64,000 bases of DNA, from the NCBI GenBank assembly GCA_964548415.1, contig CAZJQG010000004.1, forward strand, positions 4,259-68,258. Direction: 5' to 3'. The notes under the pieces are model-generated. The model did no database searches, was not told the origin of the DNA, and saw nothing but the letters and a program-made list of their open reading frames with translations. The stretch comes from an uncultured Dehalococcoidales bacterium (GTDB lineage: Bacteria; Chloroflexota; Dehalococcoidia; GIF9; UBA5629). Each line of letters begins with the position of its first letter. Positions within the stretch are counted from its first letter, which is position 1. Below are positions 9,755 through 54,532 of this stretch, one piece after another. Both the position numbers and the translations under genes were made by a program.

Positions 9755-9855
9755 TTAACCCTCCAAAATTTTATTTAGCTTGAATATCAGTACCGAGCAA
9801 AGGATCAATGCTGCCGTCATTAAGAAAATGGCCTTTTTCAATTTGGCGTCTCTCC

Positions 9856-11463: not shown

Positions 11464-11592
11464 TGTGACTCTCCGAACAACATATATTTAACTAGTATAA
11501 ATATACGTCCCGGGGGAGCTGTGTGCTTGACGCGCTGCTGACAGGTCACTGACAGTTGGCTGACAAAATGGAAAACGAGGATTTTATGTGGA

Positions 11593-14469: not shown

Positions 14470-14471
14470 TT

Positions 14472-15062: not shown

Positions 15063-15118
15063 TGTTTTTAACAGTCCGTGGTGTTAAAGACAGTGTAGCT
15101 GATTGGTAGGGACTCTGC

Positions 15119-15147
15119 TTGACAGCTTTCTGACAAATACCTAATAT
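15119..15147 (+). promoter_or_regulatory. Sigma-70-like promoter for the FHA-wHTH regulator gene (TTGACA-17-TAATAT)
   Basis: TTGACA lies at 15119-15124, followed by a 17-nt spacer and TAATAT at 15142-15147, ~60 nt upstream of the ATG at 15211. Confidence 0.5.
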
Positions 15148-15210
15148 AAATCTGATATACTCACGGTTTAATCGCATGTATTATACTACACCGAATAAAA
15201 GGCAGCCCAA

Positions 15211-34774: not shown

Positions 34775-36139
34775 TTATGGTTTATGATGGGCCTGGTACC
34801 ATTTCCAGCCGATAACTGACCATATTGCTAGCACAGCGATTATTCCGATAATGCTGCCTATAAGCCACCAATTAATACCATGTACGGCTGAGGCAACCAC
34901 TTCGAATTCACCTGTAAGGCCGGATATTTCCACTCGGTGTTTGCCCAGCTCGTCAGACGTCACGGTGAAATTAACTAACTTGTTATCCCCGGGTGCTACG
35001 GTTACCTGCGTGCTTGATTTGGCCGCGCCATCAATTTTGAGGTCTAAGTTGTAGTCGGAACTTATTTCACCGGTATTAGCTACTTTAACAGAGATGGTTA
35101 TTGCCTCGTTTGATTTAATTCGTGACGGATTAATAGTAAGGTCGCTAACGGTAAATTTAGCTGGTACCGCGGTCGGTTCTGCAATCTTGGCTAATACAGC
35201 ATATATAGAGAAGTGAGTCAGCAGACAATGTGCTTTGCCGATTTCTGCAACGCCCGGTCCAGGGTCTAACGCTAGCCAGCCCTCACTTTTATCATAGTTG
35301 GCAATGTAGCCTTCTATCGCGCCTGGAGGCAAAGAAGCCGGATCGTAATTCAAGATTAGACGGGCTGAGGGAGTAATAGCGATTGACGACGGCGCAGTAC
35401 TCTGTGCCGAGGAGTAAGCACTGAGTTCGTACACCGAGCTAATTATTTTAGTATTTTCAGGAACAGGTAATTCAGCGGCTGAGGTAGTGAATTTGATTGA
35501 ATATGGAACAACGTTGCCGGCAAGGGCTAGCTTGGTGCCTTTATCGAGTTCCAGCGAATTTTTACCTGATTTATCTTTGGCCAGACAGGCTTCACAAAGT
35601 ATGCCCTCAGTGGTCATACTGGCGACGGTAATATTGCCTTGAACATCGGCTGCCAGGCTCAGGGGGCAGCCAGCTAACGTCCCGGCTAGACCACCTAGAT
35701 CACCGCCTGCACCTCCACCGCCGCCACCGCTACATAGTGTTGTACCCTGCGGGTCATTAGATATGGCAGTCCACGTACCCATCGAATCGGTCGCCTTTAT
35801 GGCAAAGAAATAGGAAGTACACTGGTCTAAACCTATGACCAGAAGTGTTTCAGGCTGGCCTGGTGGCAGAGGATCTGGCGGATTTGCCAGTTGAGTAGCT
35901 GCTTGCCATTCGCTCTCGCTGGTAATCGGCAAAAGAGAGTAACGAATATCATATTTGGTGGCTGGCCCCCAATCTGGCGGGCTACTCGGTGGTGAAGTCC
36001 AGGTCAATGTCAGGCTTGTGTAGTTGAGATTGGTAGTGGCTAAGTCTATAATCCTGTTATTTATGATGGTTACACTGGCCTGAACTTCTGTATTATCGGC
36101 GTTAACTATACCGGGTATTATCCATAGCAACAGAGCCAA
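34775..36139 (-). CDS. Cell-surface protein: FN3-like domain, poly-Gly linker, conserved ~330-aa C-terminal module (Cys-containing domain plus CARDB-like domain plus TM anchor)
   Basis: The FN3-like block is LTLTWTSPPS...YDIRY. GGGGGGAGG is followed by CPLSL...ILCEACLAKD. The CARDB-like block is VANTGEISSDYNLDLKIDG...GKHRVEI. The C-terminus is INWWLIGSIIGIIAVLAIW plus a basic tail. The start is uncertain (TTG at 36139; the frame stays open further upstream). Confidence 0.75.
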   Translation of the reverse strand: MALLLWIIPGIVNADNTEVQASVTIINNRIIDLATTNLNYTSLTLTWTSPPSSPPDWGPATKYDIRYSLLPITSESEWQAATQLANPPDPLPPGQPETLLVIGLDQCTSYFFAIKATDSMGTWTAISNDPQGTTLCSGGGGGGAGGDLGGLAGTLAGCPLSLAADVQGNITVASMTTEGILCEACLAKDKSGKNSLELDKGTKLALAGNVVPYSIKFTTSAAELPVPENTKIISSVYELSAYSSAQSTAPSSIAITPSARLILNYDPASLPPGAIEGYIANYDKSEGWLALDPGPGVAEIGKAHCLLTHFSIYAVLAKIAEPTAVPAKFTVSDLTINPSRIKSNEAITISVKVANTGEISSDYNLDLKIDGAAKSSTQVTVAPGDNKLVNFTVTSDELGKHRVEISGLTGEFEVVASAVHGINWWLIGSIIGIIAVLAIWSVIGWKWYQAHHKP

Positions 36140-36185: not shown

Positions 36186-36902
36186 TTAATAATAGCGGCG
36201 TCGCCTCGTCAGTACTATTAACACAATAATAATAATTAAGACAACAACGGCAGCACCAATGGCTATTGGCAACCAGTTTATGGATTTCTTGGCTGGCTGT
36301 GCGCCGCCTTCACCGATGATTTTCTCCCCGGTACCTGTGCTAGCAGAGATTACCTGGACTGAGAACTCGAAATCCCTGGTCTGCTTTATGGCAGCCGTCC
36401 CGGTTTGACCGAGCCATTCCGCCGTCCCCGAAACTTTTATTTCAGCCTGTTGCCCGATTTTTTCAGTTTCAGGTACGGTGACGATAATATTAGCCACCTT
36501 AGCCAGTGCATAACCTCTGCTGGGAACAGTAATAGATGCGCTTCCCGCCGGGACGTCGGTGGCTGGCTGGGACAGCAGTTCAGACGGTTCAATGTAAAGG
36601 TTCTCGGTAACGGTGACTACCTGTCCATTGACCTCTACCTGCATCTCATGTAACGGCGGGTCAATTTTAACATCCCAATTATCCGGAGCCTGCGCTATAT
36701 TCAAAGTAACATGGGTTATGCGATTGCCGTCCACATTGTAAAAATAAATAACTCCTGTACCTGTTTTGCCCGGAATTACCTGTATTTGCTTATTGCCCTG
36801 GGCGGTAGCAAAGTTGTACTTTGCTGGTTCCTGGGCTAAGACCAGTGATGGTATGGCCAGTAACAGGGCAATGGTGAGAATTAAGGTGATTGTCTTTTTC
36901 AT
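36186..36902 (-). CDS. Cell-surface protein, NEW3/CARDB-like beta-sandwich with C-terminal TM anchor
   Basis: The signal peptide is MKKTITLILTIALLLAIPSLVLA. The block VIPGKTGTGVIYFYNVDGNRITHVTLNIAQAPDNWDVKIDP is NEW3-like. The C-terminus is INWLPIAIGAAVVVLIIIIVLIVL followed by TRRRRYY. Confidence 0.65.
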   Translation of the reverse strand: MKKTITLILTIALLLAIPSLVLAQEPAKYNFATAQGNKQIQVIPGKTGTGVIYFYNVDGNRITHVTLNIAQAPDNWDVKIDPPLHEMQVEVNGQVVTVTENLYIEPSELLSQPATDVPAGSASITVPSRGYALAKVANIIVTVPETEKIGQQAEIKVSGTAEWLGQTGTAAIKQTRDFEFSVQVISASTGTGEKIIGEGGAQPAKKSINWLPIAIGAAVVVLIIIIVLIVLTRRRRYY

Positions 36903-36929: not shown

Positions 36930-39900
36930 TTACTGTGTCGCCTGATAATAAAAAGTACTGCTATAGTCCCCGGGGGTTTGTCCGGCAGGGATTGATATCC
37001 AGTGATAGCATTGATGAACATCGCCTGCATAGGCGGACACAGTATACCACGTGACGTAGCTGGTCTGCATAGTGCTGGCTCCGAGAGTAGTGTTGACGCT
37101 ATTATATTTGACGTTAGCTATTGATATATTTCCGGGACCGCTAAAGTTATCACCTCTAATCTGAACATTGACATCTACGTTTGTCTCCGTGCTAACGGTG
37201 AGTGTGACCGCACCCTGACTGGGTGTCTGGTCAGCGGGTTGATCGGTCGTTCCGGGGTTCAGGCTGCCAAACTTGATGCCGTCGCCACTATAGTCTGTGA
37301 CCGTGAATGAAATGTAGATATTTGACTCCCCGATAGCAAAATCGCCAAATGACGCCAATCCCGTCGCCTGCGTACTCGTAGACGTACGTGTGCCAACTGC
37401 GGGATATGCCCAGGTAGAGCCATTGAAATTGCCGACAATAAATGTACTGGTGTTGGCCCCACTATCGATATCGCCTGAATTGAAATTGAAGGTGGCGCTA
37501 TAGTTTGTGAAACCGATTCCTGAGTTTGTTAAGCTCCAGTATAAATTAACGCTCTTACTCGAATTGATTGTAGAAGATGCAATGGATGGGTGATCGCCTG
37601 GCGTGGCTTTTGCAGTTAGATTGCCGGCAGTGCCGACACTATTAAAAATTACAGTGACGGGATTATAGCCACTTGTGGTACCGATTTCGAATGTGCATGA
37701 GACGTTTGTCCCAGAAGAAACATTCTTCTGCAAGTTGCCGATGATATAGCCGCTGGTGCGTGAGACGCTGCCGCCGGTTCCAATTATGACTGTACTGCCG
37801 CCGGTGGTAATCTTGCTGCTGGTTAAATTAAGTATATTGTTGATTGTGGCGTTGTTATTCAGGTTAAGACCGTTGCTGTTATTAAGCGTAAGGTTATAAA
37901 AGGTGGTGGCGCCGGTCACCGACTGCGTGCTTGTCCCATTCAAGGTGATAGTGCTGCTATTTGCCGTGAACGTCCCACTATTATTCCAGTTTCCTGTCAG
38001 GCTCAGCGTGCTGGAACCGCCATTCAATGTGCCTGCGGTCAGCGTGACGTCGCCGTTGATGGTATGTGTTAATCCGGTACCAAGATTCAATGTCCCGCCA
38101 GAACCGTCAAGGGTTAAGGCAATTCCATTCACATTTCCGGTTAAGGTAGCCGTACCTCCGGTCTTTGTCATAGATACGATACCGGAGGTGGAGAAGCCGG
38201 CGATGCTCTGCGTTCCTGTGCCGCTGATTGTAATAGTGGAGGTGCCGGCGGTAAACGTGCCGCTATTGATAAAGTTGCCGCCGAATGTGAGGGCGTAGCT
38301 GCCGGTGTTTAATATGGCGCCGGTGTTAATAGTAAGCGGAGCGTTGATTACCTTCCCCTGATTTAGTGTAACCGCACTGCCACTCGTATTAGCAATTATT
38401 ACTCCTCCCGAACCGCTCCACGTTGCCGGAAATTCCGTTCCCGTCGTTTGAGCGCTGGTCCCCTTGTATTGCAGCGTAGCGGCCGCGCCGTATGTGGGGG
38501 TTGTTCCCGTGGTTGTGGCAGTCCCTTCAATGGAGAGAATGCCGTTAATATTTATGGTACCAATAGCCTTTTGCCCGCTGCCGGACAGTGTAAGGTTGTT
38601 ATATGTTGTCATCCATGTGGTCGGGAGCGTTTGAGCAGCGCCGTAGTACTCAACAGTACCCGTACCGGGAGTCCATGTGCCCCTCGTCCCATTGATTGAG
38701 ACTGTGGTACCGATTTTCAGAGTACCACCACTGGACATATTGATGCTACCCCGCCTATTACCATTACCCCCGACACTTAGCCATGTACCGATCGTGAGCT
38801 GTGATACGCTATTTAAAAATGATAGTGTTGAGGTGGTGTTATTGGTAGTACCCACGGTGAGGGTTGAGCATACAGCATCACTTACGTTGACGGTCACCGT
38901 ATAACCGTTGTTAATAAATACATTATCGTTCGAAGTAGGTACAGCGGCACCTCCCCAGGTGGCTGTATTGTTCCAGTTGCCACTAGCTGAGGCCGTTCTG
39001 GTAGCCGCTGGGGCGTATACCGGTGGCGTGGGGCCGGGTTCCGGTGTGGGGACTGGAGCGGGTATTATAGGCGGTGTTGCCGCCTCACCCATGGCTGTGG
39101 CTATGTTAATACGACCAAACCACTGGTTTGGTACCGGGTCAACCGCGCCTCGGATCTGGTCGAAGACATAATCATTGTTTTGTCCATTTGCCGTCAGTAG
39201 AGCTGCCAGCCCGGCTACATTGGCAGCGGCGGCAGAAGTGCCGCTTATGGTGTAATAATTACCGCCTATAAACGTAGTGTAAATACCGACTCCAGGTGCA
39301 GCCACGTTGGCGCTGCCCGTATTGCTATCAGCGGCTACATTATCGTCCTGGTCGGTGGATGCGACTCCAAGCACGTGCTCCATGCCAGCCGGATAACTGG
39401 GTGCAGTTGAACCATCGTTGCCCGTAGCGGCCACTAACACGCATCCCTTGTTCCATGCGTACTGGATGGCGTCCGCTAATGCATCCGAGTAATCGGGGCT
39501 GCTGAAGCCCATCAAAATAACATTGGCGCCGTTATCGGCTGCCCACAGCATGCCGGCCACGATATCGCTGTCCAGGCCAGTGCCATCAGGTTGAAGCACC
39601 TGGACCGAAGAGAGTGTAGTTCCAGCATAAGCTACGCCAGCGATGCCGACAGCGTTGTTGACATTGGCAGCGGCTATGCCGGCTAGCGCGGTTCCATGGC
39701 CGTTCGGGTCACAGCTGGCATCACCATCGACGAAGCTCTGTCCTGATACAATACGGCCGGCAAAATCCGGGTGACCGGAATCTATGCCTGTATCCAGCAC
39801 TGCAATCGTGGCCGAGCCGGTAAAATTCCGTATATCGTAAACTTGATCCCAGGACATCTTGGGCAGAGCCCATTGCTGCGAATACAGAGGATCATCCGGT

Positions 39901-40235
39901 GTTCCGGCCTTATGGAACTTGACGGCCTTGGATGCTCGTTCGACGTGAGGGTTATTTGCCAGCGTGGACAGTACATTGTCTGCTGCCGCCGCCGGCACGC
40001 TGATTACATGTGTGTGAAGTTGCGAAAAATGGCGTAGGGCTTTGCCATGTGAGGCCTGTATTGCTGTATCTACTGCAGAGGTATTATCAGCATCCTTGAA
40101 TTTGACGATGATTTGGACTGTATCGTCGGATGGCTGTGCCTGAGTGATGCTGGTCGAGCTCACCAGTGTGAGCGTCGCCAGCATCACCATGAGTGTCAGT
40201 CCAACAACACATCTACGCAAAAACTGCTTTCCCAT
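36930..40235 (-). CDS. Secreted subtilisin-like (S8) serine protease with I9 propeptide, long Thr/Gly/Asn-rich beta-helix-like passenger and a C-terminal domain homologous to the neighbouring 172-aa protein
   Basis: The catalytic triad blocks are AVLDTGIDSGHPDF, HGTALAGIAA and SGTSAAAANVAGLAALL. The I9-like block is IVKFKD...HVISVP. Imperfect ~20-aa TGxxxLxxxGN repeats follow. The start was taken at the Met before the signal peptide (MGKQFLRRCVVGLTLMVML). Confidence 0.85.
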   Translation of the reverse strand: MGKQFLRRCVVGLTLMVMLATLTLVSSTSITQAQPSDDTVQIIVKFKDADNTSAVDTAIQASHGKALRHFSQLHTHVISVPAAAADNVLSTLANNPHVERASKAVKFHKAGTPDDPLYSQQWALPKMSWDQVYDIRNFTGSATIAVLDTGIDSGHPDFAGRIVSGQSFVDGDASCDPNGHGTALAGIAAANVNNAVGIAGVAYAGTTLSSVQVLQPDGTGLDSDIVAGMLWAADNGANVILMGFSSPDYSDALADAIQYAWNKGCVLVAATGNDGSTAPSYPAGMEHVLGVASTDQDDNVAADSNTGSANVAAPGVGIYTTFIGGNYYTISGTSAAAANVAGLAALLTANGQNNDYVFDQIRGAVDPVPNQWFGRINIATAMGEAATPPIIPAPVPTPEPGPTPPVYAPAATRTASASGNWNNTATWGGAAVPTSNDNVFINNGYTVTVNVSDAVCSTLTVGTTNNTTSTLSFLNSVSQLTIGTWLSVGGNGNRRGSINMSSGGTLKIGTTVSINGTRGTWTPGTGTVEYYGAAQTLPTTWMTTYNNLTLSGSGQKAIGTININGILSIEGTATTTGTTPTYGAAATLQYKGTSAQTTGTEFPATWSGSGGVIIANTSGSAVTLNQGKVINAPLTINTGAILNTGSYALTFGGNFINSGTFTAGTSTITISGTGTQSIAGFSTSGIVSMTKTGGTATLTGNVNGIALTLDGSGGTLNLGTGLTHTINGDVTLTAGTLNGGSSTLSLTGNWNNSGTFTANSSTITLNGTSTQSVTGATTFYNLTLNNSNGLNLNNNATINNILNLTSSKITTGGSTVIIGTGGSVSRTSGYIIGNLQKNVSSGTNVSCTFEIGTTSGYNPVTVIFNSVGTAGNLTAKATPGDHPSIASSTINSSKSVNLYWSLTNSGIGFTNYSATFNFNSGDIDSGANTSTFIVGNFNGSTWAYPAVGTRTSTSTQATGLASFGDFAIGESNIYISFTVTDYSGDGIKFGSLNPGTTDQPADQTPSQGAVTLTVSTETNVDVNVQIRGDNFSGPGNISIANVKYNSVNTTLGASTMQTSYVTWYTVSAYAGDVHQCYHWISIPAGQTPGDYSSTFYYQATQ

Positions 40236-40310
40236 ATTGCTTCCTGGCTCCCTGCATCGCCAAGAAGTATCCATTGTCAGTGTTTTACGAGCAGGTTCTT
40301 ACTTTTTACT

Positions 40311-40829
40311 CTATAGCGTCTTGTCTATTTTGTAATCGAAATTAGTTTGGTAGGTTGCAGCCGCCTGTCCGGCCGGGATGTTAATCCAGTGCCACACACC
40401 CTGTGACCAGGCCACGCCGGGAGTTGTATCCGAGCCTATCTGAGCATAAGTCGTGTCCATGGCAGTTCCAGGAGTGACGTTATCGGTGTTCCAGGTGGCG
40501 TTGTCAAGAGCAAATGAATTGGTTCCACCATCGCTAAAGTCCCCCTCGCCTTTTAGGCCGACTTTGCAGACTGCATTGGTCTCTGCAGCCACATCGATGG
40601 TGACAGCGCCGGTACTATCACTCTGATTAATCTCGGGTACATTCGTATCACCCGGATTCAGAGTGCCGAAACCAATGGTCCCACCAGTAACGGTTACCGT
40701 AGCATTAATATATTCATTGATAGTTACCGATGCATTGACTGATTCCTCAACTGCCAGAACTGGTGCTGCCACAGTACCTACTAGGATGAGTGCACAGGCC
40801 AGGCTGATAAGTAGATTTGTTTTTTTCAA
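40311..40829 (-). CDS. Small secreted beta-sandwich (fimbrial / pilin-like or WxL-like) protein, first gene of the riboswitch-controlled operon
   Basis: The signal peptide is MKKTNLLISLACALILVGTVAAPVLA. The blocks FGTLNPGDT...GAVTIDVAAETN...WHWINIPAGQAAATYQTNFDY align with the S8 protease C-terminus (FGSLNPGTT...GAVTLTVSTETN...YHWISIPAGQTPGDYSSTFYY). It has a TTG start with GGAGG 5 nt upstream. Confidence 0.7.
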   Translation of the reverse strand: MKKTNLLISLACALILVGTVAAPVLAVEESVNASVTINEYINATVTVTGGTIGFGTLNPGDTNVPEINQSDSTGAVTIDVAAETNAVCKVGLKGEGDFSDGGTNSFALDNATWNTDNVTPGTAMDTTYAQIGSDTTPGVAWSQGVWHWINIPAGQAAATYQTNFDYKIDKTL

Positions 40830-40965: not shown

Positions 40966-41056
40966 GCAAAAACCGACCTATTTTTGGGTCGGTTTCACTA
41001 CTGGCTCGGCACCGCTCAAGTGACCAAATTACAAACGGTGCTTCATTGCCTCCCAA
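40966..41056 (-). promoter_or_regulatory. Class-II c-di-GMP riboswitch (aptamer plus intrinsic-terminator expression platform), copy 1
   Basis: The minus strand reads GGGAGGCAAUGAAGCACCGUUUGUAAUUUGGUCACUUGAGCGGUGCCGAGCCAGUAGUGAAACCGACCC-AAAAAUA-GGGUCGGUUUUUG. It contains the conserved c-di-GMP-II blocks (CAAUGA, AAUUUGGNCACUUGA, AGUAGUGNAACCGACC). Its helices covary with copy 2. Confidence 0.8.
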
Positions 41057-41091
41057 TTCATGAAATAATGACTATTTATTTAGCTGACTAA

Positions 41092-41120
41092 ATAATCTCA
41101 TAGGGCTTAAATGGTGTCAA
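41092..41120 (-). promoter_or_regulatory. Sigma-70-like promoter TTGACA-17-GATTAT driving riboswitch copy 1 and the surface operon
   Basis: On the minus strand, TTGACA is at 41120-41115, the spacer is 17 nt and GATTAT is at 41097-41092. The hexamers and spacing are identical to those upstream of copy 2. Confidence 0.6.
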
Positions 41121-41689: not shown

Positions 41690-41938
41690 ATGGGAAAGAA
41701 AAATAACGGAAACGGACTTTTAACCGCCAGACAGGTGGCTCGGCTTCTTAATGTTCATGTGAATACGGTCCGGCGCTGGAATGACCGGGGCATTCTCAAG
41801 GCATACCGTATCGGTCCGCGCGGCGACCGGAGATTCGACAAGGCCGACGTCGAAGGTTTCCTGTCTGGTAACGGAGACGGTAGTGGCAATGACCAACACG
41901 GCAGCCAGTCTGTACCCGAGCTCGTACTCGTCAATTGA
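41690..41938 (+). CDS. Excisionase/MerR-superfamily small HTH DNA-binding protein (82 aa)
   Basis: LLTARQVARLLNVHVNTVRRWNDRGILKAYRIGPRGDRRFDKADVEGF is a typical excisionase-family HTH. AAGGAG lies upstream of the ATG. No integrase is nearby. Confidence 0.75.
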   Translation: MGKKNNGNGLLTARQVARLLNVHVNTVRRWNDRGILKAYRIGPRGDRRFDKADVEGFLSGNGDGSGNDQHGSQSVPELVLVN

Positions 41939-41995: not shown

Positions 41996-44900
41996 TTAGT
42001 AGTTAAACCGCCTCCATCTCATTAAAATCCATATGGCGAATGCCAGTATAATAACAGCAATAATGCCGCCGATTAGCCACCAGTTGAGGCTATTGGGCCC
42101 AGCTACTACAAATTCACCCTTTAGCCCGGCCACAGTCACCTGGTAGGTTCCAACGATGTCTTCGGTTGTAGTGAAACTCACCACGCTGCTTGTCCCGGCA
42201 GCAAGGGTTACTTCTTTCGTTGATTTCGTTATACCATTCACTTTTAGCTCAACGTTGTAGTTTCCAGCAGTGCTGCCCGTATTAGCTACATTTAAACCAA
42301 TGGTTACTTGCTGAGCGGGTTGTATTTGAGTCGGGTTGATAGTTAAATTGCTTACTTCAAATTTAGCTGCCGCCTCCGCAAGCTTAGCCAATAAAGTGTC
42401 GGGTACGAAATAGTCCAGAGTACCTACCGCTTGGCCGAGTTCGGCCACCGTACCTACGGAGCCCATGGCCTGCCAGCCCTGGTTTTGACTGGAGTAGTAA
42501 TCATAGGTTACCTGTGCAGTATTTTCTGGCAGCTCATTAGGGTCATAAGCTGAGGCGATAGTGAACAGCGGATAAATATTGATGGCTGACGGATCCGTGC
42601 CGTCCAATGAGGCATAAGCGTTAATATTATAGGCTTGTCCGATTGTCTGGCCACCAGTAACCGGTGGTGATGAGCTGGCGAGTGTTACTTTGATAAGTTG
42701 TGGTATCTGATTATCCACCAGGGTAAGCTTTGTTCCTTCTTTAGCTTCCCAGCTATCTTGCTTCTGCGGGTCGTAGGCCAGGCAATTTTCGCATAGCACA
42801 CCATCCGATGTCATTTTGGCGGTGGTTATTTGGCCCAGCATATTTACAGTAAGTGTTAGGGGACAACCGCCGCCTGTTGTTGTCTGCCCAAAACCAACTT
42901 CACCTCCGCCACCTCCGCCTCCACCGCCACATTGTATGACGCTAACCGTGGTTGTGGCATTATCGCTGATACAGCCGTTTGTGTTGGTAACAACCAGAGT
43001 ATAAGTGCCAGACATATTGGAGGTGGCATTAGGTATGGAGGGATTCTGCAAATTGCTGGAAAACCCGAGAGGCCCCGTCCAGCCATATGAAGCTACATTA
43101 TCTGAACCGGCCATTAGCTGTATAGTACCGCCGATGCAGACAGGTGAGTTAGTGGATGGAGCGGAGATGGGTATAGGATTTATGGTTACGTGTCCGGTGG
43201 CGGTGTCATCGGGGCAGACGCCGTTAGAGCAGGTGACGGTATAGTCGTAGGTCCCTGGAGTCGAAGGGTTAACCAGGTGATAATCTAGGGTCATAGAACA
43301 GGAGCCGGAGCAGGCGGCGCCGTTAGAGGTAAACAGGGTATCGTTAAGTGTCGTTCCCTGGCAGATAGAGAAATCGGGAGCGGTGGAAGTGCAGGGAGAA
43401 ACGACGGTTACGTGTCCGGTGGCGGTGTCATCGGGGCAGACGCCGTTAGAGCAGGTGACGGTATAGTCGTAGGTCCCTGGAGTCGAAGGGTTAACCAGGT
43501 GATAATCTAGGGTCATAGAACAGGAGCCGGAGCAGGCGGCGCCGTTAGAGGTAAACAGGGTATCGTTAAGTGTCGTTCCCTGGCAGATAGAGAAATCGGG
43601 AGCGGTGGAAGTGCAGGGAGAAACGACGGTTACGTGTCCGGTGGCGGTGTCATCGGGGCAGACGCCGTTAGAGCAGGTGACGGTATAGTCGTAGGTCCCT
43701 GGAGTCGAAGGGTTAACCAGGTGATAATCTAGGGTCATAGAACAGGAGCCGGAGCAGGCGGCGCCGTTAGAGGTAAACAGGGTATCGTTAGGTGTCGTTC
43801 CCTGGCAGATAGAGAAATCGGGAGCGGTACTTAAACAGGGAGCGACGATGGTTACATCGATGCTGTTATTACATGTGCAGCCGTTATTGGAGATAGTGAC
43901 TGCGATATGCGCTGTACCAGATGAAGCAGCATCCCAGGTGATAGAGTTGCCAGCATTACTCCCTACTATGCTACCGCTACCGGTTATAGTCCAATCATAG
44001 GTAGCGTTATCCACGGCGTTGGGTACTGAAGCCGAGTTGCTGGTGGAGTTTTCGCAGACTGCATTAGTTGTGTCGATGGTGCAGTCGGGCAGCGAGTTAA
44101 CGGTAATATAGTTTGTCTTTGTCTGGTTGTCAGAGCCACAATCATTCGTAGCGATTAAAGTGACGTAATAGCTGCCGGCCGTATCGTAGGTTATGGCTAG
44201 AGGATTCCGATCGCTCGAGAATGAAGGATTCCCGCCTTCGAAAGTCCAGCTAAAAGAGGTAGCGTTGGTGGATGTATTGGTAAAGATGACGTTATTGCCA
44301 GCGCAAATTGCAGTAGGACAGCCGGAGAAATCGGCGATAGGCCCATTGCATGTAACCTGTCCAAGCTTGGCGCAAATTGCATTAGCGTAAGCCTGACCGT
44401 TGGCGATTATCTGTACCCAGCCTGGCGGCGGATAAGCTGGCGGCGTAGCATAAGAGCCGGTTTGAGGCCAGACGATGTCAGTCCGCAGCCACTCGCTTGC
44501 CGTATCCTGTGAGGGACCTATATACTCAGCATCGATCTCATCCTGGTCAGAGGTCATGCCTAAATGACCGATGGTGTAAACTTGTGCTGCCTCCGTGCTG
44601 TCCATAGCCTCTGTACACCCATCAACGATATCGCACGAGTCACAGCCAACTGAATTATAGGGATGACCGGTGTCATTGCAACAGCGTGTGGGTATGCCAT
44701 CGGTGACTAGATTAACGACCTGTTTGATATCAGGATCAAAGCACGGTGCACCGTATAATGTATCGGCAGCCAGGTAAAAGGCGCAGGCTAGAGGGGTATA
44801 TCCGCCCCTTTTGGAGATGCCACTGATAGTATTGGCCACGCTAACGGCGTTGCTGGCCGTGATAACAGTAGGCGGTACTTCGATCACTGCCCCAATGCCT

Positions 44901-46795
44901 CCCGGTGGGAAGAGGGGCAGACCGATTTGTACCACCGTCAGCTGTATCGAGCCATCATGTATAAAACAGCCGGGATCTGCGTTCTCGATGGCTGAAGCCA
45001 GGCCGTTCTTCATATCGGTGAAATCGGTACCGGATATGCTGGCGCTACCATCCAAGATTATGGCTAGCTGGACCCGCAGAGGCACAAAGTCGGGGTCGGC
45101 GGCATCTATCAAAGTGTCGCAGTCGTTGTCGATGCCGTCGCAAACCTCCAGGGCGCCGGGATGGACATTGGGATTGGAATCGTTGCAGTCGGTGTTATCA
45201 GCAACATAGCCGACGGGCTGACTGCACGAAAACTGCTGGATACTGGGGTTGCCATATCCATCATTATCGCTGTCCCTATACCAGACTGTGGGTGAGTTAT
45301 AGGTAAAAGAACCGCTACTGGTAGCGGTGCCACCGGACGTGGTCACCGTAATTTGGCCGCTGGAGCCAGTGCCCACCACAGCCGTAATTTGGGTGGCCGT
45401 GTTAACAGTGTAACTGGCAGCATCGGTGCCGCCAAATTGAACCGCGGTGGTCCCGAGGAAATCGGTGCCATGGATTGTTACCGAAGTATCGGTGCAGCCG
45501 GATATCGGGTCAAACGAAGTAATCGTGGGTGGTGCTGGGGGAGTGTAGAAAATCTTTACCTGCACCTGGTCCAGCCATATGGAATCACCACCTCCAGTCG
45601 CATCCATCCTCACTCTAAAGCTATTGCTATTGATTATAGTCGTGGTCCATGAGCCGTATCCCCAATTGTTACTACTGCCTCCGAGCACTATCGTGGTATC
45701 ATAAGTCTGCAGACTGCCGGTATTTATAGCAGTTGTCCAGTGGGTGCCACCGTCGTAGGAGAGGGAGACGTCCCAGGTCCTTGATGAACTGGAATCTCTA
45801 TATCCCTCGATACTGACCTGAATGCCATCGATAGTAGAACCACCCGGAATAGTAAGTCCGAAACCATAGTATTGATTTATATCATTAGTGGAATCATACT
45901 CCGCTCTAAGGTTGTTTGAGGTATAAGCATAAGTCGGATTACCAACACCGCCTCCAGTGGAACTGTTAGGCTGTTTCCAGCCGTCTTCGAAACTAGCAGC
46001 TATTGTATGATTAGCGGTAACGTTGGTGAAAGTATAACTATTTGTTCGTCCTTGCGAGACGCTGTCTACTGCCACGTCAGAAACTATATAACTTGTATTT
46101 GGGGGGATGTCGAATGCCTGGTCATTTCCTTCATCGACCGATACGACACCGGAAGGTGTTATGCTACCTCCTGCTCCGGCAGTAGCGTTAATGGTATAAG
46201 TTACTGTCGGAGTGTAGTAAACCGTAATCCGAATAAAGTCTACATATATGTCAGTATTATTGCTCCGGGCTTGCGCTGCCATGTGGACACCAAATGTAGA
46301 GGCATTGATTTCAGAGCGAGTCCATGTTGTTCCCCATAGGTCGGTTGGCCCACCGTATGTTCTTATGGTTGCTGAGCCGGGCCAGTTAGGTGATGTAACG
46401 GCTTTGTTGTCACCTACCCGGGCGGTGCCGTTCTTTGTAAGTTGGACGAGGGCATCCCTGGCGCTACCGGCGCCGCAATATCTCTCAATCTCTACTTGGA
46501 TACCTGTTATGGCGTTACCAGCGGGTATGTTAAAGCTAAAGTTAGTTGCCATCAGGACATAAGAGTAATCATTGTCGTCAAAAGATGAGGCAGTTATGCT
46601 CGCATTATTCCCGTCATCGGCACTTATGTTACCCCGGTTTATCCAGTCTTCGTCGTTGTATGAACCCTCGGAATTTGTATTGACTGTTCCTGGATAGCTG
46701 ATGCCCGTATTGTCTGCCAGCGCTGTACCGGCCATTGGTAGTGTTAGTGCAAGGAGCATGATTACTCCGAGTATCAGGTATAATAGCCTTCTCAT
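41996..46795 (-). CDS. Giant (1599 aa) multidomain cell-surface adhesin
   Basis: Domains in N-to-C order:
- Signal peptide.
- Two paralogous ~150-aa N-terminal domains (motif I(T/D)GIQV(E/S)IE).
- IPT/TIG-like domain (ITSFDPISG...VTIHGTDF).
- MopE-type metal-binding motif (DNDGYG...CDGIDNDCD).
- VWA-like domain (ILDGSASISG).
- PKD-like domain (WTFEGG...YDTAGSYYVTLIATNDCG).
- Three tandem Cys-rich 74-aa repeats.
- Poly-Gly linker.
- The same C-terminal module and NWWLIG TM anchor as 34775..36139. Confidence 0.85.
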   Translation of the reverse strand: MRRLLYLILGVIMLLALTLPMAGTALADNTGISYPGTVNTNSEGSYNDEDWINRGNISADDGNNASITASSFDDNDYSYVLMATNFSFNIPAGNAITGIQVEIERYCGAGSARDALVQLTKNGTARVGDNKAVTSPNWPGSATIRTYGGPTDLWGTTWTRSEINASTFGVHMAAQARSNNTDIYVDFIRITVYYTPTVTYTINATAGAGGSITPSGVVSVDEGNDQAFDIPPNTSYIVSDVAVDSVSQGRTNSYTFTNVTANHTIAASFEDGWKQPNSSTGGGVGNPTYAYTSNNLRAEYDSTNDINQYYGFGLTIPGGSTIDGIQVSIEGYRDSSSSRTWDVSLSYDGGTHWTTAINTGSLQTYDTTIVLGGSSNNWGYGSWTTTIINSNSFRVRMDATGGGDSIWLDQVQVKIFYTPPAPPTITSFDPISGCTDTSVTIHGTDFLGTTAVQFGGTDAASYTVNTATQITAVVGTGSSGQITVTTSGGTATSSGSFTYNSPTVWYRDSDNDGYGNPSIQQFSCSQPVGYVADNTDCNDSNPNVHPGALEVCDGIDNDCDTLIDAADPDFVPLRVQLAIILDGSASISGTDFTDMKNGLASAIENADPGCFIHDGSIQLTVVQIGLPLFPPGGIGAVIEVPPTVITASNAVSVANTISGISKRGGYTPLACAFYLAADTLYGAPCFDPDIKQVVNLVTDGIPTRCCNDTGHPYNSVGCDSCDIVDGCTEAMDSTEAAQVYTIGHLGMTSDQDEIDAEYIGPSQDTASEWLRTDIVWPQTGSYATPPAYPPPGWVQIIANGQAYANAICAKLGQVTCNGPIADFSGCPTAICAGNNVIFTNTSTNATSFSWTFEGGNPSFSSDRNPLAITYDTAGSYYVTLIATNDCGSDNQTKTNYITVNSLPDCTIDTTNAVCENSTSNSASVPNAVDNATYDWTITGSGSIVGSNAGNSITWDAASSGTAHIAVTISNNGCTCNNSIDVTIVAPCLSTAPDFSICQGTTPNDTLFTSNGAACSGSCSMTLDYHLVNPSTPGTYDYTVTCSNGVCPDDTATGHVTVVSPCTSTAPDFSICQGTTLNDTLFTSNGAACSGSCSMTLDYHLVNPSTPGTYDYTVTCSNGVCPDDTATGHVTVVSPCTSTAPDFSICQGTTLNDTLFTSNGAACSGSCSMTLDYHLVNPSTPGTYDYTVTCSNGVCPDDTATGHVTINPIPISAPSTNSPVCIGGTIQLMAGSDNVASYGWTGPLGFSSNLQNPSIPNATSNMSGTYTLVVTNTNGCISDNATTTVSVIQCGGGGGGGGGEVGFGQTTTGGGCPLTLTVNMLGQITTAKMTSDGVLCENCLAYDPQKQDSWEAKEGTKLTLVDNQIPQLIKVTLASSSPPVTGGQTIGQAYNINAYASLDGTDPSAINIYPLFTIASAYDPNELPENTAQVTYDYYSSQNQGWQAMGSVGTVAELGQAVGTLDYFVPDTLLAKLAEAAAKFEVSNLTINPTQIQPAQQVTIGLNVANTGSTAGNYNVELKVNGITKSTKEVTLAAGTSSVVSFTTTEDIVGTYQVTVAGLKGEFVVAGPNSLNWWLIGGIIAVIILAFAIWILMRWRRFNY
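43184..43828. repeat. Near-perfect tandem repeat, 222-nt unit x 2.9, inside the adhesin gene
   Basis: GGTTACGTGTCCGGTGG recurs at 43184, 43406 and 43628. The units are identical apart from one or two substitutions (for example TTAAGT vs TTAGGT, giving Leu vs Pro). Confidence 0.95.
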
Positions 46796-46843
46796 TTCTC
46801 TATTACGCCTCCTATTCGCGGCAATCCTGGATGTTCGCTAAAA

Positions 46844-46936
46844 TAAAAAAACCGACCGTTAAAATGGGTCGGTTTCACTACTGGCTCAGCACAAGTCAAG
46901 TGACCAAATTATTACTCGTGCTTCATCGCCCCCCAA
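46844..46936 (-). promoter_or_regulatory. Class-II c-di-GMP riboswitch (aptamer plus terminator), copy 2, upstream of the giant adhesin
   Basis: The minus strand reads GGGGGGCGAUGAAGCACGAGUAAUAAUUUGGUCACUUGACUUGUGCUGAGCCAGUAGUGAAACCGACCC-AUUUUAAC-GGUCGGUUUUUUU. AGGAGG and the ATG at 46795 follow ~35-50 nt later. Confidence 0.8.
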
Positions 46937-47048
46937 CAAGTTCTTAAGTACGTAAATTATTTCGAGTTGGTTACCTCCATGGCAGCCTTCGACTTGATTT
47001 GAAGTTACTTAAACAACACGCAAATCTGCCAAATTTACGATAATTTAC

Positions 47049-47077
47049 ATAATCGCATAGTACCAGTTACTTGTCAA
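47049..47077 (-). promoter_or_regulatory. Sigma-70-like promoter TTGACA-17-GATTAT driving riboswitch copy 2 and the adhesin gene
   Basis: On the minus strand, TTGACA is at 47077-47072, the spacer is 17 nt and GATTAT is at 47054-47049. Confidence 0.6.
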
Positions 47078-47300: not shown

Positions 47301-48326
47301 ATGGTAAAAACGGGGAAGTTTATTTGGTTGGCGCTCATTCTCCTGATTACGCTAGTGGTTACAGTATTAGCTCCAACCCTTGTTAGAATCTCAGGCATTT
47401 CCTTGACAGGTTCAGTCGCGGTTCTGCCATTTGAACCGGGAACCGAAATTCAAAAGCCCAGTTCGATTGTTCCGAAAGATTCTTCCGGAAAGCAGTGGGC
47501 TATAACGAAGGTAATGGCGCCACAAGCCTGGCAGGTTACTGGCGGTGAGCCGAATATCCTGATAGCTGTATTGGATACCGGAATCGATAAAGACCAGAAA
47601 GACCTCGCTGGCAAGGTGATGGCCGAAATCAATTTCACCGATAGCGATACAGTTGAAGATGTTTACGGCCATGGCACTCATATAGCGGGCATCATTGCAG
47701 CCTGGGCAAAAAATAGTGGCGGTGTTGACGGTTTGGCTCCCGATTGTCGACTGCTTAATGTGAAGGTGGCTGACGATCAGGGCAGATTTGACAGCAAAGT
47801 AGCAGCTAAAGGCGTCATCTGGGCGGTTGACCATGGTGCCAAGGTCATAAACATGAGTCTGGTTACCCTGGAGCCGTCGTCCGCCTTGGAGGCGGCAATT
47901 GACTATGCCTGGAACAAAGGGGCTGTTGTAGTCGCTGCAGCCGGCAATCTCGTTGGCGATAAGATTGTATATCCAGCATATTATTCGCGGTGCATCGCCG
48001 TGGCTGCCACTGACAGCAACGACAGTATAGCTTCCTGGTCCAGCCAGGGAGAATGGGTGGATGTAGCGGCGCCGGGTGTGGATATTTATTCTACGCTGCC
48101 CCGAGATAATTATGGCTACAAAAGCGGGACCTCAATGGCATCGGCTCATGTATCAGGAGTGGCCGGGCTATTATTTGCTCTGGAGAAAGACACTGACGGC
48201 GATGGCCTGATTAACGATGAAGTCAGGTCTGCGCTTGAGAACGGTTGTGATGGTCTTGATGCAGGTGTTGTAAAAGGGCGAATTAATGCCTATCATGCAG
48301 TGAATAGCGCGTTAACCTCCAAATAG
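47301..48326 (+). CDS. Membrane-anchored/secreted subtilisin-like (S8) serine protease (341 aa)
   Basis: The triad blocks are AVLDTGIDKDQKDL, HGTHIAGIIAA and SGTSMASAHVSGVAGLL. The N-terminus has a hydrophobic helix. Confidence 0.9.
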   Translation: MVKTGKFIWLALILLITLVVTVLAPTLVRISGISLTGSVAVLPFEPGTEIQKPSSIVPKDSSGKQWAITKVMAPQAWQVTGGEPNILIAVLDTGIDKDQKDLAGKVMAEINFTDSDTVEDVYGHGTHIAGIIAAWAKNSGGVDGLAPDCRLLNVKVADDQGRFDSKVAAKGVIWAVDHGAKVINMSLVTLEPSSALEAAIDYAWNKGAVVVAAAGNLVGDKIVYPAYYSRCIAVAATDSNDSIASWSSQGEWVDVAAPGVDIYSTLPRDNYGYKSGTSMASAHVSGVAGLLFALEKDTDGDGLINDEVRSALENGCDGLDAGVVKGRINAYHAVNSALTSK

Positions 48327-48329
48327 ACG

Positions 48330-48385
48330 GAACGAAGCAACCTCATTCAATTTACTCACCCCTGAGGTTGCTTCGTTCTGATATT
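48330..48385 (+). terminator. Intrinsic terminator after the S8 protease gene
   Basis: GAACGAAGCAACCTCA - 17-nt loop - TGAGGTTGCTTCGTTC is followed by a T-rich tract. Confidence 0.7.
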
Positions 48386-48469
48386 TTCGGTAGTAATTCC
48401 ATCAACTCGATATAGCTTCGAATTCCAGTTCTTTCCTTTTTATTATAGTGGCAGTATAATCTGGAAATC

Positions 48470-49951
48470 ATGCCCAAAATGGATAAAGACCTCTATGGTC
48501 TGCTCACCACGCTGTCCGATATCCTCACCCCCAAGCAAAGACCGGCTTATGTGGTTGGTGGGTTTGTCCGTGACTGGCTCCTGGGAAAGGATACCGTTGA
48601 TGTTGATATTGCTGTTCAGGGGGACGCACTAAAAACAGCTCATCAAGTGGCCCAAGCGGTTAACGGGAAATATGTTTTGCTTGATCAAGTCAATAAAGTT
48701 GCCAGGGTGGTTGTCACATCTGGGCGACAATGGCATCTGGATTTCAGTACGTTTCAAATCGATATCGAGTCAGACCTGGCACGGCGTGATTTCACCGTCA
48801 ATGCTATGGCCTTCGAACTTCAGGGTTTGATTGACGGCTCGCCAAGTATTATCGATCCGTTCTCAGGCAAAGGAGACTTGAAGAAGAAGCGGGTACGCGC
48901 GGTCAGCGAGCAAATCTTTCACGCAGATGCCGCCAGACTAATGCGCGCCCTTAGAATAGCCGCCGAACTCAACTTTAAGATTGAGCCTGCCACAGAAACG
49001 CTCATCAGGAAAGATTGCCAGTTGGCAGCACTGGTTCCGGGCGAACGGCTGCGCGATGAGCTGGTCAGGATACTTGCGGTGCCTGGAGCCGCTGCTTTGG
49101 TACGATATATGGATAGCCTCGGTTTGCTGACCGCCATTATTCCTGAACTGGACTGTTTAAAAGGCGTGGAACAGCCGAAAGAGCATTATTGGGATGTATT
49201 TAATCATTCCGTTGAAACGATAGCCACAGCTGAATTTTTACTGCGGGAAAGTAGGTGGAAGTACGGGAAAACTAGTTTGTTGTCCGTAACTCCCTGGTCG
49301 GAAGAAGTGGAGCATCATTTTGATGGTGAGATTTCATCGGGGACGAACAGGAAGGTGATGCTAAAGATTGGTGCATTGATGCACGATATAGCCAAGCCTG
49401 CCACCAAGGCCGTTGATGAGACGGGCAGGACGCGTTTTTTGGGTCATCCCAAAGAGGGTGCCGCGATTACAGTGAAAGTTTTGGAGAGACTCAGGTTCAG
49501 TAGTCGGGAAATTAGACTGGCAGAAAACTTGGTTTATCATCACCTGCGTCCGGCACAAATGTCCAATGTGGGGATGCCGACCAGTCGGGCTATTTTCAGA
49601 TATTTCCGGGATACGGAGGGAGCCGGAATCGATATATTGTTTTTAGCGCTGGCCGATTATTTAGCCACGCACGGTCCCAAACTTGACATTCAGGAGTGGA
49701 ACAATCATAATCATGTGATTAATTTTGTACTGACCGAGCATTTGCATCAGGAAACCAAGGTTTTACCGGTCAAGTTGATAGATGGCAATGATTTAATGAA
49801 GACCTTCGGCTTGAAGCCGGGGCGCTTATTGGGCGAGCTTTTAAAGGAAGTGCAAGAAGCTCAAGCCGCCCGAGAACTGAGTACCAGGGAGCAAGCTCTG
49901 GACCTGGTCAGGAAAGAATTAGAAAAAAGGCAGTGCGGTTCAGCATGCTAA
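48470..49951 (+). CDS. cca: CCA-adding tRNA nucleotidyltransferase / poly(A) polymerase family protein with HD domain
   Basis: The head-domain block is VVGGFVRDWLLGKDTVDVDIAV and RRDFTVNAMA. The HD block is MHDIAKP...LGHPKEG. Confidence 0.8.
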   Translation: MPKMDKDLYGLLTTLSDILTPKQRPAYVVGGFVRDWLLGKDTVDVDIAVQGDALKTAHQVAQAVNGKYVLLDQVNKVARVVVTSGRQWHLDFSTFQIDIESDLARRDFTVNAMAFELQGLIDGSPSIIDPFSGKGDLKKKRVRAVSEQIFHADAARLMRALRIAAELNFKIEPATETLIRKDCQLAALVPGERLRDELVRILAVPGAAALVRYMDSLGLLTAIIPELDCLKGVEQPKEHYWDVFNHSVETIATAEFLLRESRWKYGKTSLLSVTPWSEEVEHHFDGEISSGTNRKVMLKIGALMHDIAKPATKAVDETGRTRFLGHPKEGAAITVKVLERLRFSSREIRLAENLVYHHLRPAQMSNVGMPTSRAIFRYFRDTEGAGIDILFLALADYLATHGPKLDIQEWNNHNHVINFVLTEHLHQETKVLPVKLIDGNDLMKTFGLKPGRLLGELLKEVQEAQAARELSTREQALDLVRKELEKRQCGSAC

Positions 49952-49985
49952 ACTTAGTCAATCAAATAAATAGGCAGGCAGTCAA

Positions 49986-51320
49986 TTGAAAAGAGCAAAT
50001 ACACCACTACTAATTTTTATCCTGGCTCTATTTGCCGTCTGTGTCTGGTTCATTTTGCCGGGTAATGGATTTGGTGACAGAAAAGATTTCAAATTGGGCC
50101 TCGACCTTAAAGGCGGCAGCCATCTGGTCTATAGAATAGACCTCTCGAAAAAGGACCCGTCTCAGTCGGACGCCGACGTTATAGCCGGCGTTAAACAAAA
50201 GATCGAACGCCGCGTAAATGCCTACGGTGTCACCGAGCCCATTGTCCAGACAATCACTAATGAGGGAGGCAGCTTCGTTCTCGTTCAGTTGCCCGGCGTC
50301 ACCGACATAGATGAGGCAATTAACCTCATCGGCCAGACCGCAGAACTGGACTTCAGGGAACAAGTGGTCGATGCTAGCGGCAAGCCGGTACTTGATGCCG
50401 AGGGCAACCAGGAATGGAAAATTGCCACGGCCAAAGGCACCGATGGGCAGGAAAGAGAGCTAACAGGTAAATATCTAAAACCAAACGCTCAGGTGGTTCT
50501 GACTCCGCAAACTAATGAGCCTGAGGTAGCATTTGAGTGGAATTCGGAGGGTGCCACGCTCTTTGAGCAGATCACGCAACGCAACTTAAATAAACCTCTC
50601 GGTATATTTCTTGATAATAAACTTATTTCGGCACCGACGGTGCAGGCTGTAATTAAGGATAAAGGCGTCATCACCGGCCTGACCCTGGAAAACGCCAAGA
50701 CACTGGCCATACAGTTGAATTCGGGTTCATTGGATGTTCCGCTGACGATAGTGGAACGCAGAGATATTGGCGCAACTCTAGGCGCGGATTCTCTGAAGAA
50801 AAGCCTTGAAGCCGGTATCATCGGGGCCGCCATGGTCATTATTTTTATGATCGCCTATTACCGGTTCTCCGGCCTTATGGCATGTCTGGCTTTAATAGTC
50901 TACGTGGCCTTAACCTTAGCCGTATTTAAGCTGATTCCGGTAGTTTTGACGCTGCCCGGTATAGCCGGCTTTCTGGTTTCGGTCGGCATGGGAGTAGATG
51001 GCAATGTCCTTGTCGCCGAGCGCCTTAAAGAAGAATTGAGACGCGGGCGCACCCTGGGAGCGGCTATAGAGGAAGGCTTCAAGCAGTCGTGGTCAGCCAT
51101 TTTAGATGCCAACGTAACCGTATTTATCGCCTGCATAGTTCTATACTGGCTGGGCAATACATTCGGCAATTTCCTGGTTCTGGGTTTTGCCACCACTTTG
51201 TTCATAGGTACACTTTTAAGCATGTTTACGCAGGTTGTAGTAACCAGGACTTTCCTCCGCGCCGTTGTAGGTGCCGGTATGGCTAAGAGTCCCGCGGCTT
51301 ATGGAGTAGCGAAACAATGA
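49986..51320 (+). CDS. secD: Protein translocase subunit SecD
   Basis: LGLDLKGGSHLVY...ELDFRE are followed by the C-terminal 6-TM domain. It has a TTG start and lies directly upstream of secF with a 4-nt overlap. Confidence 0.9.
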   Translation: MKRANTPLLIFILALFAVCVWFILPGNGFGDRKDFKLGLDLKGGSHLVYRIDLSKKDPSQSDADVIAGVKQKIERRVNAYGVTEPIVQTITNEGGSFVLVQLPGVTDIDEAINLIGQTAELDFREQVVDASGKPVLDAEGNQEWKIATAKGTDGQERELTGKYLKPNAQVVLTPQTNEPEVAFEWNSEGATLFEQITQRNLNKPLGIFLDNKLISAPTVQAVIKDKGVITGLTLENAKTLAIQLNSGSLDVPLTIVERRDIGATLGADSLKKSLEAGIIGAAMVIIFMIAYYRFSGLMACLALIVYVALTLAVFKLIPVVLTLPGIAGFLVSVGMGVDGNVLVAERLKEELRRGRTLGAAIEEGFKQSWSAILDANVTVFIACIVLYWLGNTFGNFLVLGFATTLFIGTLLSMFTQVVVTRTFLRAVVGAGMAKSPAAYGVAKQ

Positions 51321-52225: not shown

Positions 52226-52260
52226 TTACCGGCTTTCCTTCAAATTGCCAGTACCCAAAA

Positions 52261-53292: not shown

Positions 53293-53481
53293 ACGTACTT
53301 TGCTCTTTGGGAAAATGTGGCAGGCAATTTGTTTAAAGAGCATGCCTATGATAGCAAAGCTGGACGTAATGGGCAACAAATGCCTTGTATCCAACGTTGA
53401 AATAACATAGAATATGAAGTCGCCTCGCATATCTAGGCATATCACGCTTGATAAGTCACTCGGAATATACAGGAGGACTAA

Positions 53482-54486: not shown

Positions 54487-54515
54487 TTGTTTGGGTTATG
54501 ACCTCGTGATATACT
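54487..54515 (+). promoter_or_regulatory. Candidate promoter TTGTTT-17-TATACT for the NurA / HAS-barrel / HerA operon
   Basis: The hexamers lie at 54487-54492 and 54510-54515 with a 17-nt spacer, ~18 nt upstream of the ATG at 54533. Confidence 0.4.
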
Positions 54516-54532
54516 GGGGCGTCGGGATAATC

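Follow-up and report, generated by a model that had tools for sequence, protein, structure and literature searches.

Two predicted class-II c-di-GMP riboswitches ahead of surface-protein genes in an uncultured Dehalococcoidia bacterium

Two leaders and the genes behind them

The stretch of DNA considered here, 64 kb of contig CAZJQG010000004.1 and referred to in its entirety as the window, carries on its minus strand two RNA leaders that lie about 6 kb apart, are alike in terminator design and precede genes for secreted or anchored proteins. Both are matched by the covariance model of the class-II cyclic di-GMP (c-di-GMP) aptamer, and both are very probably class-II riboswitches acting as transcriptional ON switches. 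A preliminary description of this DNA, made from the letters without database searches, had recognised the leader at the first site; the second copy was absent from it. The parts of the two leaders are listed below, in the direction of reading and with positions counted in nucleotides (nt) of the window.

41092 to 41120, minus strand: predicted sigma-70-type promoter of unit 1, TTGACA-17-GATTAT with an extended -10 TG, 10/12 consensus
40978 to 41062, minus strand: c-di-GMP-II aptamer, copy 1, RF01786 at 74.9 bits, with P1, P2, P3 and pseudoknot
40969 to 40996, minus strand: intrinsic terminator of unit 1 from a terminator scan, 10 pairs (5 G-C), then UGCGUUUUAU
47049 to 47077, minus strand: predicted sigma-70-type promoter of unit 2, TTGACA-17-GATTAT with TG, 10/12, about 100 nt upstream of the aptamer
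46858 to 46942, minus strand: c-di-GMP-II aptamer, copy 2, RF01786 at 65.5 bits, with a syntenic copy in the Dehalococcoidia metagenome-assembled genome (MAG) L093
46848 to 46876, minus strand: intrinsic terminator of unit 2 from the minimum-free-energy (MFE) and centroid folds of 46840-46942(-), arm GAAACCGACC, then UUUUAUUUU

The whole 64 kb was scanned by cmscan against the 4227 families of Rfam release 15, in which RF01786 (c-di-GMP-II) has a gathering score of 53.5 bits. Both copies match the full length of the model (positions 1-84 of 84), at E-values of 4.8e-15 for copy 1 and 2.1e-12 for copy 2, and a permissive scan of the 64 kb gave no further Rfam match at E <= 0.5. The score against RF01786 had been set beforehand as the check on the claimed identity, and copy 1 exceeds the gathering score by 21 bits. 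The leader sequence quoted in the preliminary description lies on the minus strand, at roughly 41053-40985; the span assigned to the element, 40966-41056, takes in the terminator and most of the aptamer, but the Rfam match runs 6 nt further 5', to 41062.

Four genes between 40829 and 34775 had been proposed as the cargo of the first leader, and four open reading frames (ORFs) are indeed found there on the same strand, separated by gaps of 27-46 nt and presumably co-transcribed. Unit 2 has a single large protein as its cargo. Protein lengths are in amino acids (aa).

40311 to 40829, minus strand: gene 1, 172-aa secreted protein, an ORF with GGAGG 7 nt before a TTG start
36930 to 40274, minus strand: gene 2, 1114-aa S8 subtilase, Peptidase_S8 at E 8e-33, Fervidolysin_NPro-like prodomain at E 5e-6, long C-terminal extension
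36186 to 36902, minus strand: gene 3, 238-aa protein, N-terminal signal peptide, transmembrane anchor at the C-terminus ending RRRRYY
34775 to 36139, minus strand: gene 4, 454-aa fn3/CARDB protein, with Pfam matches to fn3 and CARDB and a C-terminal transmembrane anchor
41996 to 46795, minus strand: unit 2 cargo, 1599-aa surface protein, Pfam MopE, VWA and PKD, with a CARDB-like C-terminal module and a transmembrane anchor
41690 to 41938, plus strand: HTH_17/MerR-like gene of 82 aa, divergent from riboswitch unit 1, Pfam HTH_17 at E 5e-12

The Pfam content bears out the surface-type character that had been attributed to this cargo, and the labels of S8 protease for gene 2 and of fn3/CARDB protein for gene 4 hold good. 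The label NEW3-like for gene 3 does not, as no Pfam domain of its own lies above threshold and NEW3 was not recovered at E <= 0.01, although its anchor segment is common to a NEW3-containing gene at the equivalent position in locus L053 (loci outside the window carry the prefix L). The label pilin-like for gene 1 is a hint rather than a finding. The 172-aa protein belongs to no Pfam or NCBIfam family and has only 14 homologues among 5.8 billion proteins; its AlphaFold2 model is of moderate confidence (mean pLDDT 69.5), and the best match to it in the PDB, the archaic chaperone-usher pilin CsuA/B, is weak (E 0.035, probability 0.97, TM-score 0.40-0.50), with no structure matched at E <= 0.001. 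No gene of the operon encodes a Pfam chaperone or usher domain, and NCBIfam gave no informative family for the cargo proteins. Residues 985-1111 of the protease (window 36930-37320(-)) are homologous to gene 1 (37% identity, E 1e-15), which suggests, at the level of sequence, a substrate or co-assembly relationship between the two proteins. Gene 4 is 62% identical to the third gene of L053; beyond its 3' end come a gap of 161 nt, a promoter-like site and then proB, and no clear terminator was found between gene 4 and proB.

The cargoes of the two units are related through their C-termini, the last 300 or so residues of the 1599-aa protein being 41% identical to gene 4. This module of about 300 aa, made up of a Gly-rich linker, a Cys-containing domain, CARDB and a transmembrane anchor, recurs in riboswitch-controlled proteins whose N-terminal parts differ, at 34775-35700(-) and 41996-42900(-) in the window and, among related Dehalococcoidia, in L053, L045, L113 and L124. 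The 1599-aa gene also contains a tandem repeat at 43184-43828 (222 bp x 2.9, 99% identity) that specifies three Cys-rich units, nearly identical and each about 74 aa long, and such similarity between units suggests recent expansion or a variable repeat number.

Aptamer architecture and expression platform

Copy 1 forms P1 from UUGGG/CCCAA, P2 from GGC/GCC and P3 from GCACCGUU/AGCGGUGC, and all three helices are paired at the model positions in both window copies. The pseudoknot can be read off both copies as UCAC/GUGA, the Rfam consensus being a GCAC loop in P3 with a GUGC tail, and the G-C pair of the consensus has thus become U-A in both, a change that is compensatory. In the structure 3Q3Z the ligand is contacted by A13, A14, U37, G39, U60, A61 and C68-A74, according to a review (PMC7288161). 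When this numbering is carried over to the window by conserved blocks, copy 1 has at these contacts A, A, U, G, C (paired), A, A (paired), A, A, C, C, G, A, and only two of them deviate, U60 being replaced by C in a covarying P2 pair and C68 by A. Copy 2 departs from copy 1 at just one contact, position 13, where it has G and where the Rfam consensus is variable. A related family, RF03169 (the GAG variant), has the consensus GGCGAGACCG, with G where the canonical class has A69; both window copies read GUGAAACCG at this point, and for both RF03169 is out-competed by RF01786 within the clan. Judged by every sequence-level criterion examined, the leader is a genuine class-II c-di-GMP riboswitch and an ordinary member of RF01786.

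It might be argued, from the 'GAA' at positions 67-69 in place of the canonical 'GCA', that these are class-II-like specificity variants which sense some other cyclic dinucleotide, or whose affinity for c-di-GMP is markedly different. The listed ligand contacts include position 68, at which A stands in both copies and in every related copy retrieved, an equal U-A pair stands in the pseudoknot consensus of RF03169, and 4 of 15 related aptamers scored as RF03169 rather than RF01786. The invariance of A68 is, however, partly a matter of construction, as the pattern with which relatives were sought required it, and the change from C to A is exactly offset by G to U in the pseudoknot partner, as neutral helix covariation predicts. 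Position 69 is the canonical A (by our own reading of the consensus lines, G in RF03169 and A in RF01786), both copies lie far over the RF01786 threshold and keep that assignment in clan competition, and among relatives the cargo includes HD-GYP genes, the products of which typically hydrolyse c-di-GMP. A specificity variant is therefore considered decidedly unlikely.

A hairpin lies directly 3' of each aptamer and consists of GAAACCGACC, a loop, GGUCGGUUUU and a U-rich tail. In both copies the 5' arm of this terminator, GAAACCGACC, is the aptamer's own 3' strand, which contains the ACCGA pocket along with one half of the pseudoknot and two P1 cytosines. Folded alone, the aptamer gives P1-P2-P3; with 18 nt of downstream sequence added, a 10-bp terminator appears in place of P1, again in both copies, and the leaders with terminator have MFE values of -31.5 and -31.7 kcal/mol. 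The hairpin of copy 1 was also picked up independently by the terminator scan. Because the strand is shared, aptamer and terminator are mutually exclusive, so that a ligand-stabilised fold should block termination and the element should act as an ON switch.

The sequence of events envisaged is that transcription would begin at the sigma-70-type promoter and that, when ligand is lacking, the 3' segment of the aptamer would pair with the downstream strand to form the intrinsic terminator, so that the transcript stops in the leader. With c-di-GMP bound, P1, the pseudoknot and the ACCGA pocket would retain that segment, the terminator would be barred and RNA polymerase would read into the cargo genes. 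High c-di-GMP is thus predicted to turn on the surface-protein genes and to remodel the cell surface of the Dehalococcoidia host. The good promoter noted in the preliminary description corresponds to the predicted consensus match at 41120-41092, and the layout TTGACA...ATGAGATTAT is retained in the homologous leader of L018.

Control of the opposite sign, or at the level of translation, deserves mention since class-I c-di-GMP riboswitches work both ways, as OFF switches in C. difficile and as an ON switch in B. thuringiensis, and the long spacer after terminator 1 could conceal further structure. Yet with the 5' arm of the terminator formed by the 3' strand of the aptamer, ligand-stabilised folding can only oppose termination, and in neither unit does the aptamer-terminator element overlap the ribosome-binding site, which is situated farther 3', by about 130 nt in unit 1 and by about 40 nt in unit 2. 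An OFF switch or a translational one is accordingly regarded as extremely improbable, and the transcriptional ON switch is the reading followed here.

Host lineage and related loci

The host is placed in the Dehalococcoidia (Chloroflexota), and not among the Firmicutes, by comparison of sequences, because the flanking genes are syntenic with, and 74-89% identical in protein sequence to, those of Dehalococcoidia MAGs. Window positions 47478-53385 are collinear over 5.9 kb with the Dehalococcoidia bacterium contig L093, at 74% nucleotide identity, and the encoded proteins are 88% (SecD), 89% (SecF), 82% (deacetylase) and 74% (CCA enzyme) identical; proB is 86% identical to that of Chloroflexi bacterium RBG_13_51_36 (L045), and P0014, the homologue least similar to the 172-aa protein (40% identity), comes from a Chloroflexota MAG. 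The preliminary description had made an extension of the taxonomic range of the class conditional on a host outside the Firmicutes, and the Dehalococcoidia provide such a host. One related locus, L105, is on a contig labelled uncultured Bacteroidetes and matches window copy 2 in its riboswitch region at 88% identity over 67 nt; a binning error, and not a Bacteroidota host, may lie behind this label.

Syntenic orthologues of the riboswitches occur in L093 for copy 2 and in L045 and L053 for copy 1. The cargo at the syntenic positions differs, being one protein of 1262 aa in L045 and another four-gene set in L053, and the anchor module recurs. In L018 the leader (1394-1478(+)) keeps promoter and terminator, with UGG changed to UAG and AGU to ACU in the conserved blocks; it is called as RF03169, at 47.9 bits, and not as RF01786, and the 172-aa gene of that locus is 64% identical to that of the window. 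To judge from these substitutions it may be a drifting or variant copy.

Such a copy raises the question of whether the window leaders are themselves decayed, with a hairpin that is a constitutive attenuator or terminator, or is bypassed, and with cargo under promoter control only, for example by the HTH_17/MerR-like protein. Of the 16 c-di-GMP riboswitches predicted in C. difficile, only 11 proved functional (PMC6366702). The L018 homologue shows that conserved blocks can change, to the extent of two substitutions and a call to RF03169 rather than RF01786, and a conserved small helix-turn-helix gene adjoins the promoter, the same gene being found upstream of the riboswitch-1 unit in L002, L005 and L018 also. 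On the other hand, both window copies are full-length and high-scoring with all conserved positions intact, syntenic orthologues in other species keep aptamer and terminator despite about 26% nucleotide divergence in the flanks, and the helices covary. Decay to a non-switching state thus seems very unlikely; the HTH_17/MerR-like gene, which may or may not belong to the system, could represent a second layer of control.

Species-representative genomes were scanned with a pattern specific for the U-A form, GTCACTT...AGNNANTNGTGAAACCGNCC, which returned at least 117 loci and by its nature provides no measure of how common the U-A form is in the phylum relative to the G-C form. Among the matches listed, 94 were from Chloroflexota (mostly Dehalococcoidia/Dehalococcoidales), 8 from Bacillota, 14 from other phyla and 1 was unnamed, as judged by record titles, and several MAGs contributed four to six loci each. 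Twelve of the Chloroflexota loci were rescanned with Rfam, and all 14 aptamers in them reached a gathering score, 11 as RF01786 and 3 as RF03169. With a relaxed pattern, the flanks of the Chloroflexota loci yielded no pseudoknot of the canonical G-C form, a result biased by the choice of these loci with the U-A pattern. The class is common in Dehalococcoidia, and the Chloroflexota copies evidently make up a large and neglected part of a known class that the standard Rfam model detects. A tandem arrangement was observed in the complete genome of Dehalogenimonas sp. XYDCF (CP139473, L132), in which c-di-GMP-II aptamers at 5611-5694 and 5926-6010(-) lie about 230 nt apart.

The helices named in the preliminary description are paired in the leader and show covariation among 119 related copies. 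Pairing of the model structure reaches 81.7% in these copies, compared with 68.7% in shuffles and 32-44% in slid registers, and the covariation score is 0.435 against 0.186 in shuffles, none of 500 of which reached the observed value. P3 is 92.6% paired, with double changes in all eight of its pairs, and P2 is 90.2% paired; P1 is short, with the inner 3 pairs well kept and the outer ones variable. Covariation of the pseudoknot is uninformative among these relatives, the search pattern having fixed the bases concerned. Positions left free by the pattern are nearly invariant and match the family consensus (A19 in 119/119 copies, G18 in 117/119, G39 in 119/119, U38 in 115/119 and A66 in 119/119). 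A terminator that shares its arm with the aptamer is present in 78 of 121 related copies.

Most of the 102 first genes downstream of these aptamers have no Pfam family. The families that recur are Flg_new_2, Beta_helix, SdrD_B, SpaA, PKD, RCC1, GT2 and GT4, which are surface or exopolysaccharide types, and also HD_5 with PAS. By a crude heuristic, an N-terminal hydrophobic segment is present in 53 of the 78 first genes of at least 200 aa and in 83 of 459 other ORFs of the same loci (odds ratio 9.6, p 4e-18). The first genes are in this sense enriched for secreted or membrane proteins, and cargo of this type agrees with the known biology of c-di-GMP. In two Chloroflexi MAGs the first gene encodes a PAS-HD-GYP protein (L079, 3933-5330(+); L102, 5352-6794(+)) with HD_5 at E 1e-35 to 1e-38 and the motifs HDxGK...GYP. 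If the ligand is c-di-GMP, HD-GYP cargo is the form of negative feedback to be expected, and it implies riboswitch-driven feedback on the signal. A motif scan of 8-kb stretches around the related loci found HD-GYP and did not find GGDEF.

The 172-aa protein family was considered as a partner of the riboswitch and rejected. Its members are accompanied by the aptamer only in the near-identical metagenome contigs L001-L006, and by the variant form in L018; the loci of the distant homologues (L007-L017 and L019) have no Rfam match and another gene context. The aptamer goes with the locus and the lineage and not with this protein family.

A number of considerations weigh against the interpretation of the window leaders as c-di-GMP-responsive ON switches. 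Domain searches of the window proteins found no GGDEF, EAL or HD-GYP protein encoded in the 64 kb, so that synthesis of c-di-GMP by the host is presumed. The correspondence of contacts with 3Q3Z is one that we infer from conserved blocks and not from a structure alignment. At position 68 both copies have A in place of a C that is highly conserved in the Rfam consensus and is a ligand contact in the review cited above, and there is a small chance, going by the substitution itself, that A68 affects affinity or specificity. Finally, the U-tract of terminator 1 is interrupted (UGCGUUUU) and a spacer of 137 nt separates this terminator from the start codon.

A wider hypothesis is that Dehalococcoidia possess an expanded, lineage-typical subclass of c-di-GMP-II riboswitches, with the U-A pair, several copies per genome and a near-uniform terminator, which would serve as the main cyclic-dinucleotide effector for fast-evolving anchored surface proteins and in which affinity or specificity would be moved by A68 away from that of the clostridial aptamers. 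We think this unlikely.

Dehalococcoidia are abundant in the subsurface and in sediments, are mostly uncultured and include organohalide respirers. To our knowledge the control of their cell surface and of attachment is poorly known. The window and at least 94 related loci supply what may be a ready-made regulon of ON switches located before secreted or anchored proteins, glycosyltransferases and HD-GYP phosphodiesterases, and such a regulon offers a testable handle on surface remodelling and aggregation in Dehalococcoidia. The related loci are in addition a large and diverse natural set of aptamers. The understanding of the mechanism of this riboswitch class is unchanged by the finding.

Several features elsewhere in the window may be recorded. 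Positions 8585-15894 hold a dense cluster of FHA-domain proteins (five in total) together with a Ser/Thr kinase (12653-13666) and a PP2C phosphatase (13666-14469), and within this cluster is an FHA-Trans_reg_C regulator (15211-15894). Consecutive genes at 54491-57983(+) encode a nuclease (NurA), a HAS-barrel protein and a HerA-like ATPase, a row that could represent archaeal-type end resection or an anti-phage HerA system. At 21331-24945(-) an ORF of 1204 aa consists of two fused full ABC exporter units of the MsbA/HlyB type.

Comparison with known systems

Such functional work on the class as was found has all been done in Clostridioides difficile, where all four class-II switches are ON switches (PMC6366702). 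More generally, c-di-GMP-II riboswitches have been described as typical of clostridia and Deinococcus (PMC9495176). A search of the full-text literature, with the class discovery papers and Rfam species lists outside its scope, found no paper on c-di-GMP-II in Chloroflexi or Dehalococcoidia.

The C. acetobutylicum aptamer (3Q3Z), taken together with the RF01786 consensus, shares with the window copies the P1-P2-P3 architecture, the pseudoknot and the blocks UGA, UUGG, AGUAGUG and AACCGACC, and its contacts are kept except at U60 and C68. The window copies differ from it in the pseudoknot pair at position 68, which is U-A and not G-C, and, in the case of copy 2, in the G at the A13 site. The P2 of the C. 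acetobutylicum aptamer, given as AAC/GUU in the preliminary description, differs from GGC/GCC in the window, and it is the window form that fits the Rfam consensus ggC/Gcc. RF03169 is alike in belonging to the same clan (CL00127) and in having a U-A pair in its pseudoknot consensus (uCGCC/GGCGA), and some Dehalococcoidia copies, as well as the L018 homologue, score there; the window copies depart from it in having A and not G at the next position and in scoring higher with RF01786.

Among characterised switches the closest parallel to unit 1 is Cdi-2-4 of C. difficile, which precedes the type IV pilin gene pilA1 and acts through a terminator, binding of c-di-GMP leading to read-through into a surface-appendage operon (PMC6366702). 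The two are alike in aptamer class, in the logic of termination without ligand, which in the window is predicted from the shared strand, and in having a small, secreted, structural-looking protein as the first gene of the cargo. They are unlike in that the window host belongs to the Chloroflexota (Dehalococcoidia) and not to the Bacillota, in that the first gene of the window unit is not a type IV pilin, being without a Pfam family and resembling CsuA/B only weakly in fold, and in the U-A pair that replaces G-C in the pseudoknot.

Three of the C. difficile class-II cargoes are pilins or adhesins, namely pilA1, CD630_28310 and CD630_32460 (PMC6366702). The adhesins, under Cdi-2-3 and Cdi-2-1, and the protease ZmpI together resemble the window system in that anchored surface proteins stand under class-II ON switches, predicted ones in the window, and the c-di-GMP surface programme includes a protease. 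The adhesins carry LPXTG sortase signals, whereas the anchors in the window are C-terminal transmembrane helices. ZmpI is a zinc metalloprotease under a class-I OFF switch and opposes the adhesins; in the window, by contrast, a serine protease of the S8 family is apparently co-transcribed with the surface proteins and would come under one and the same ON switch.

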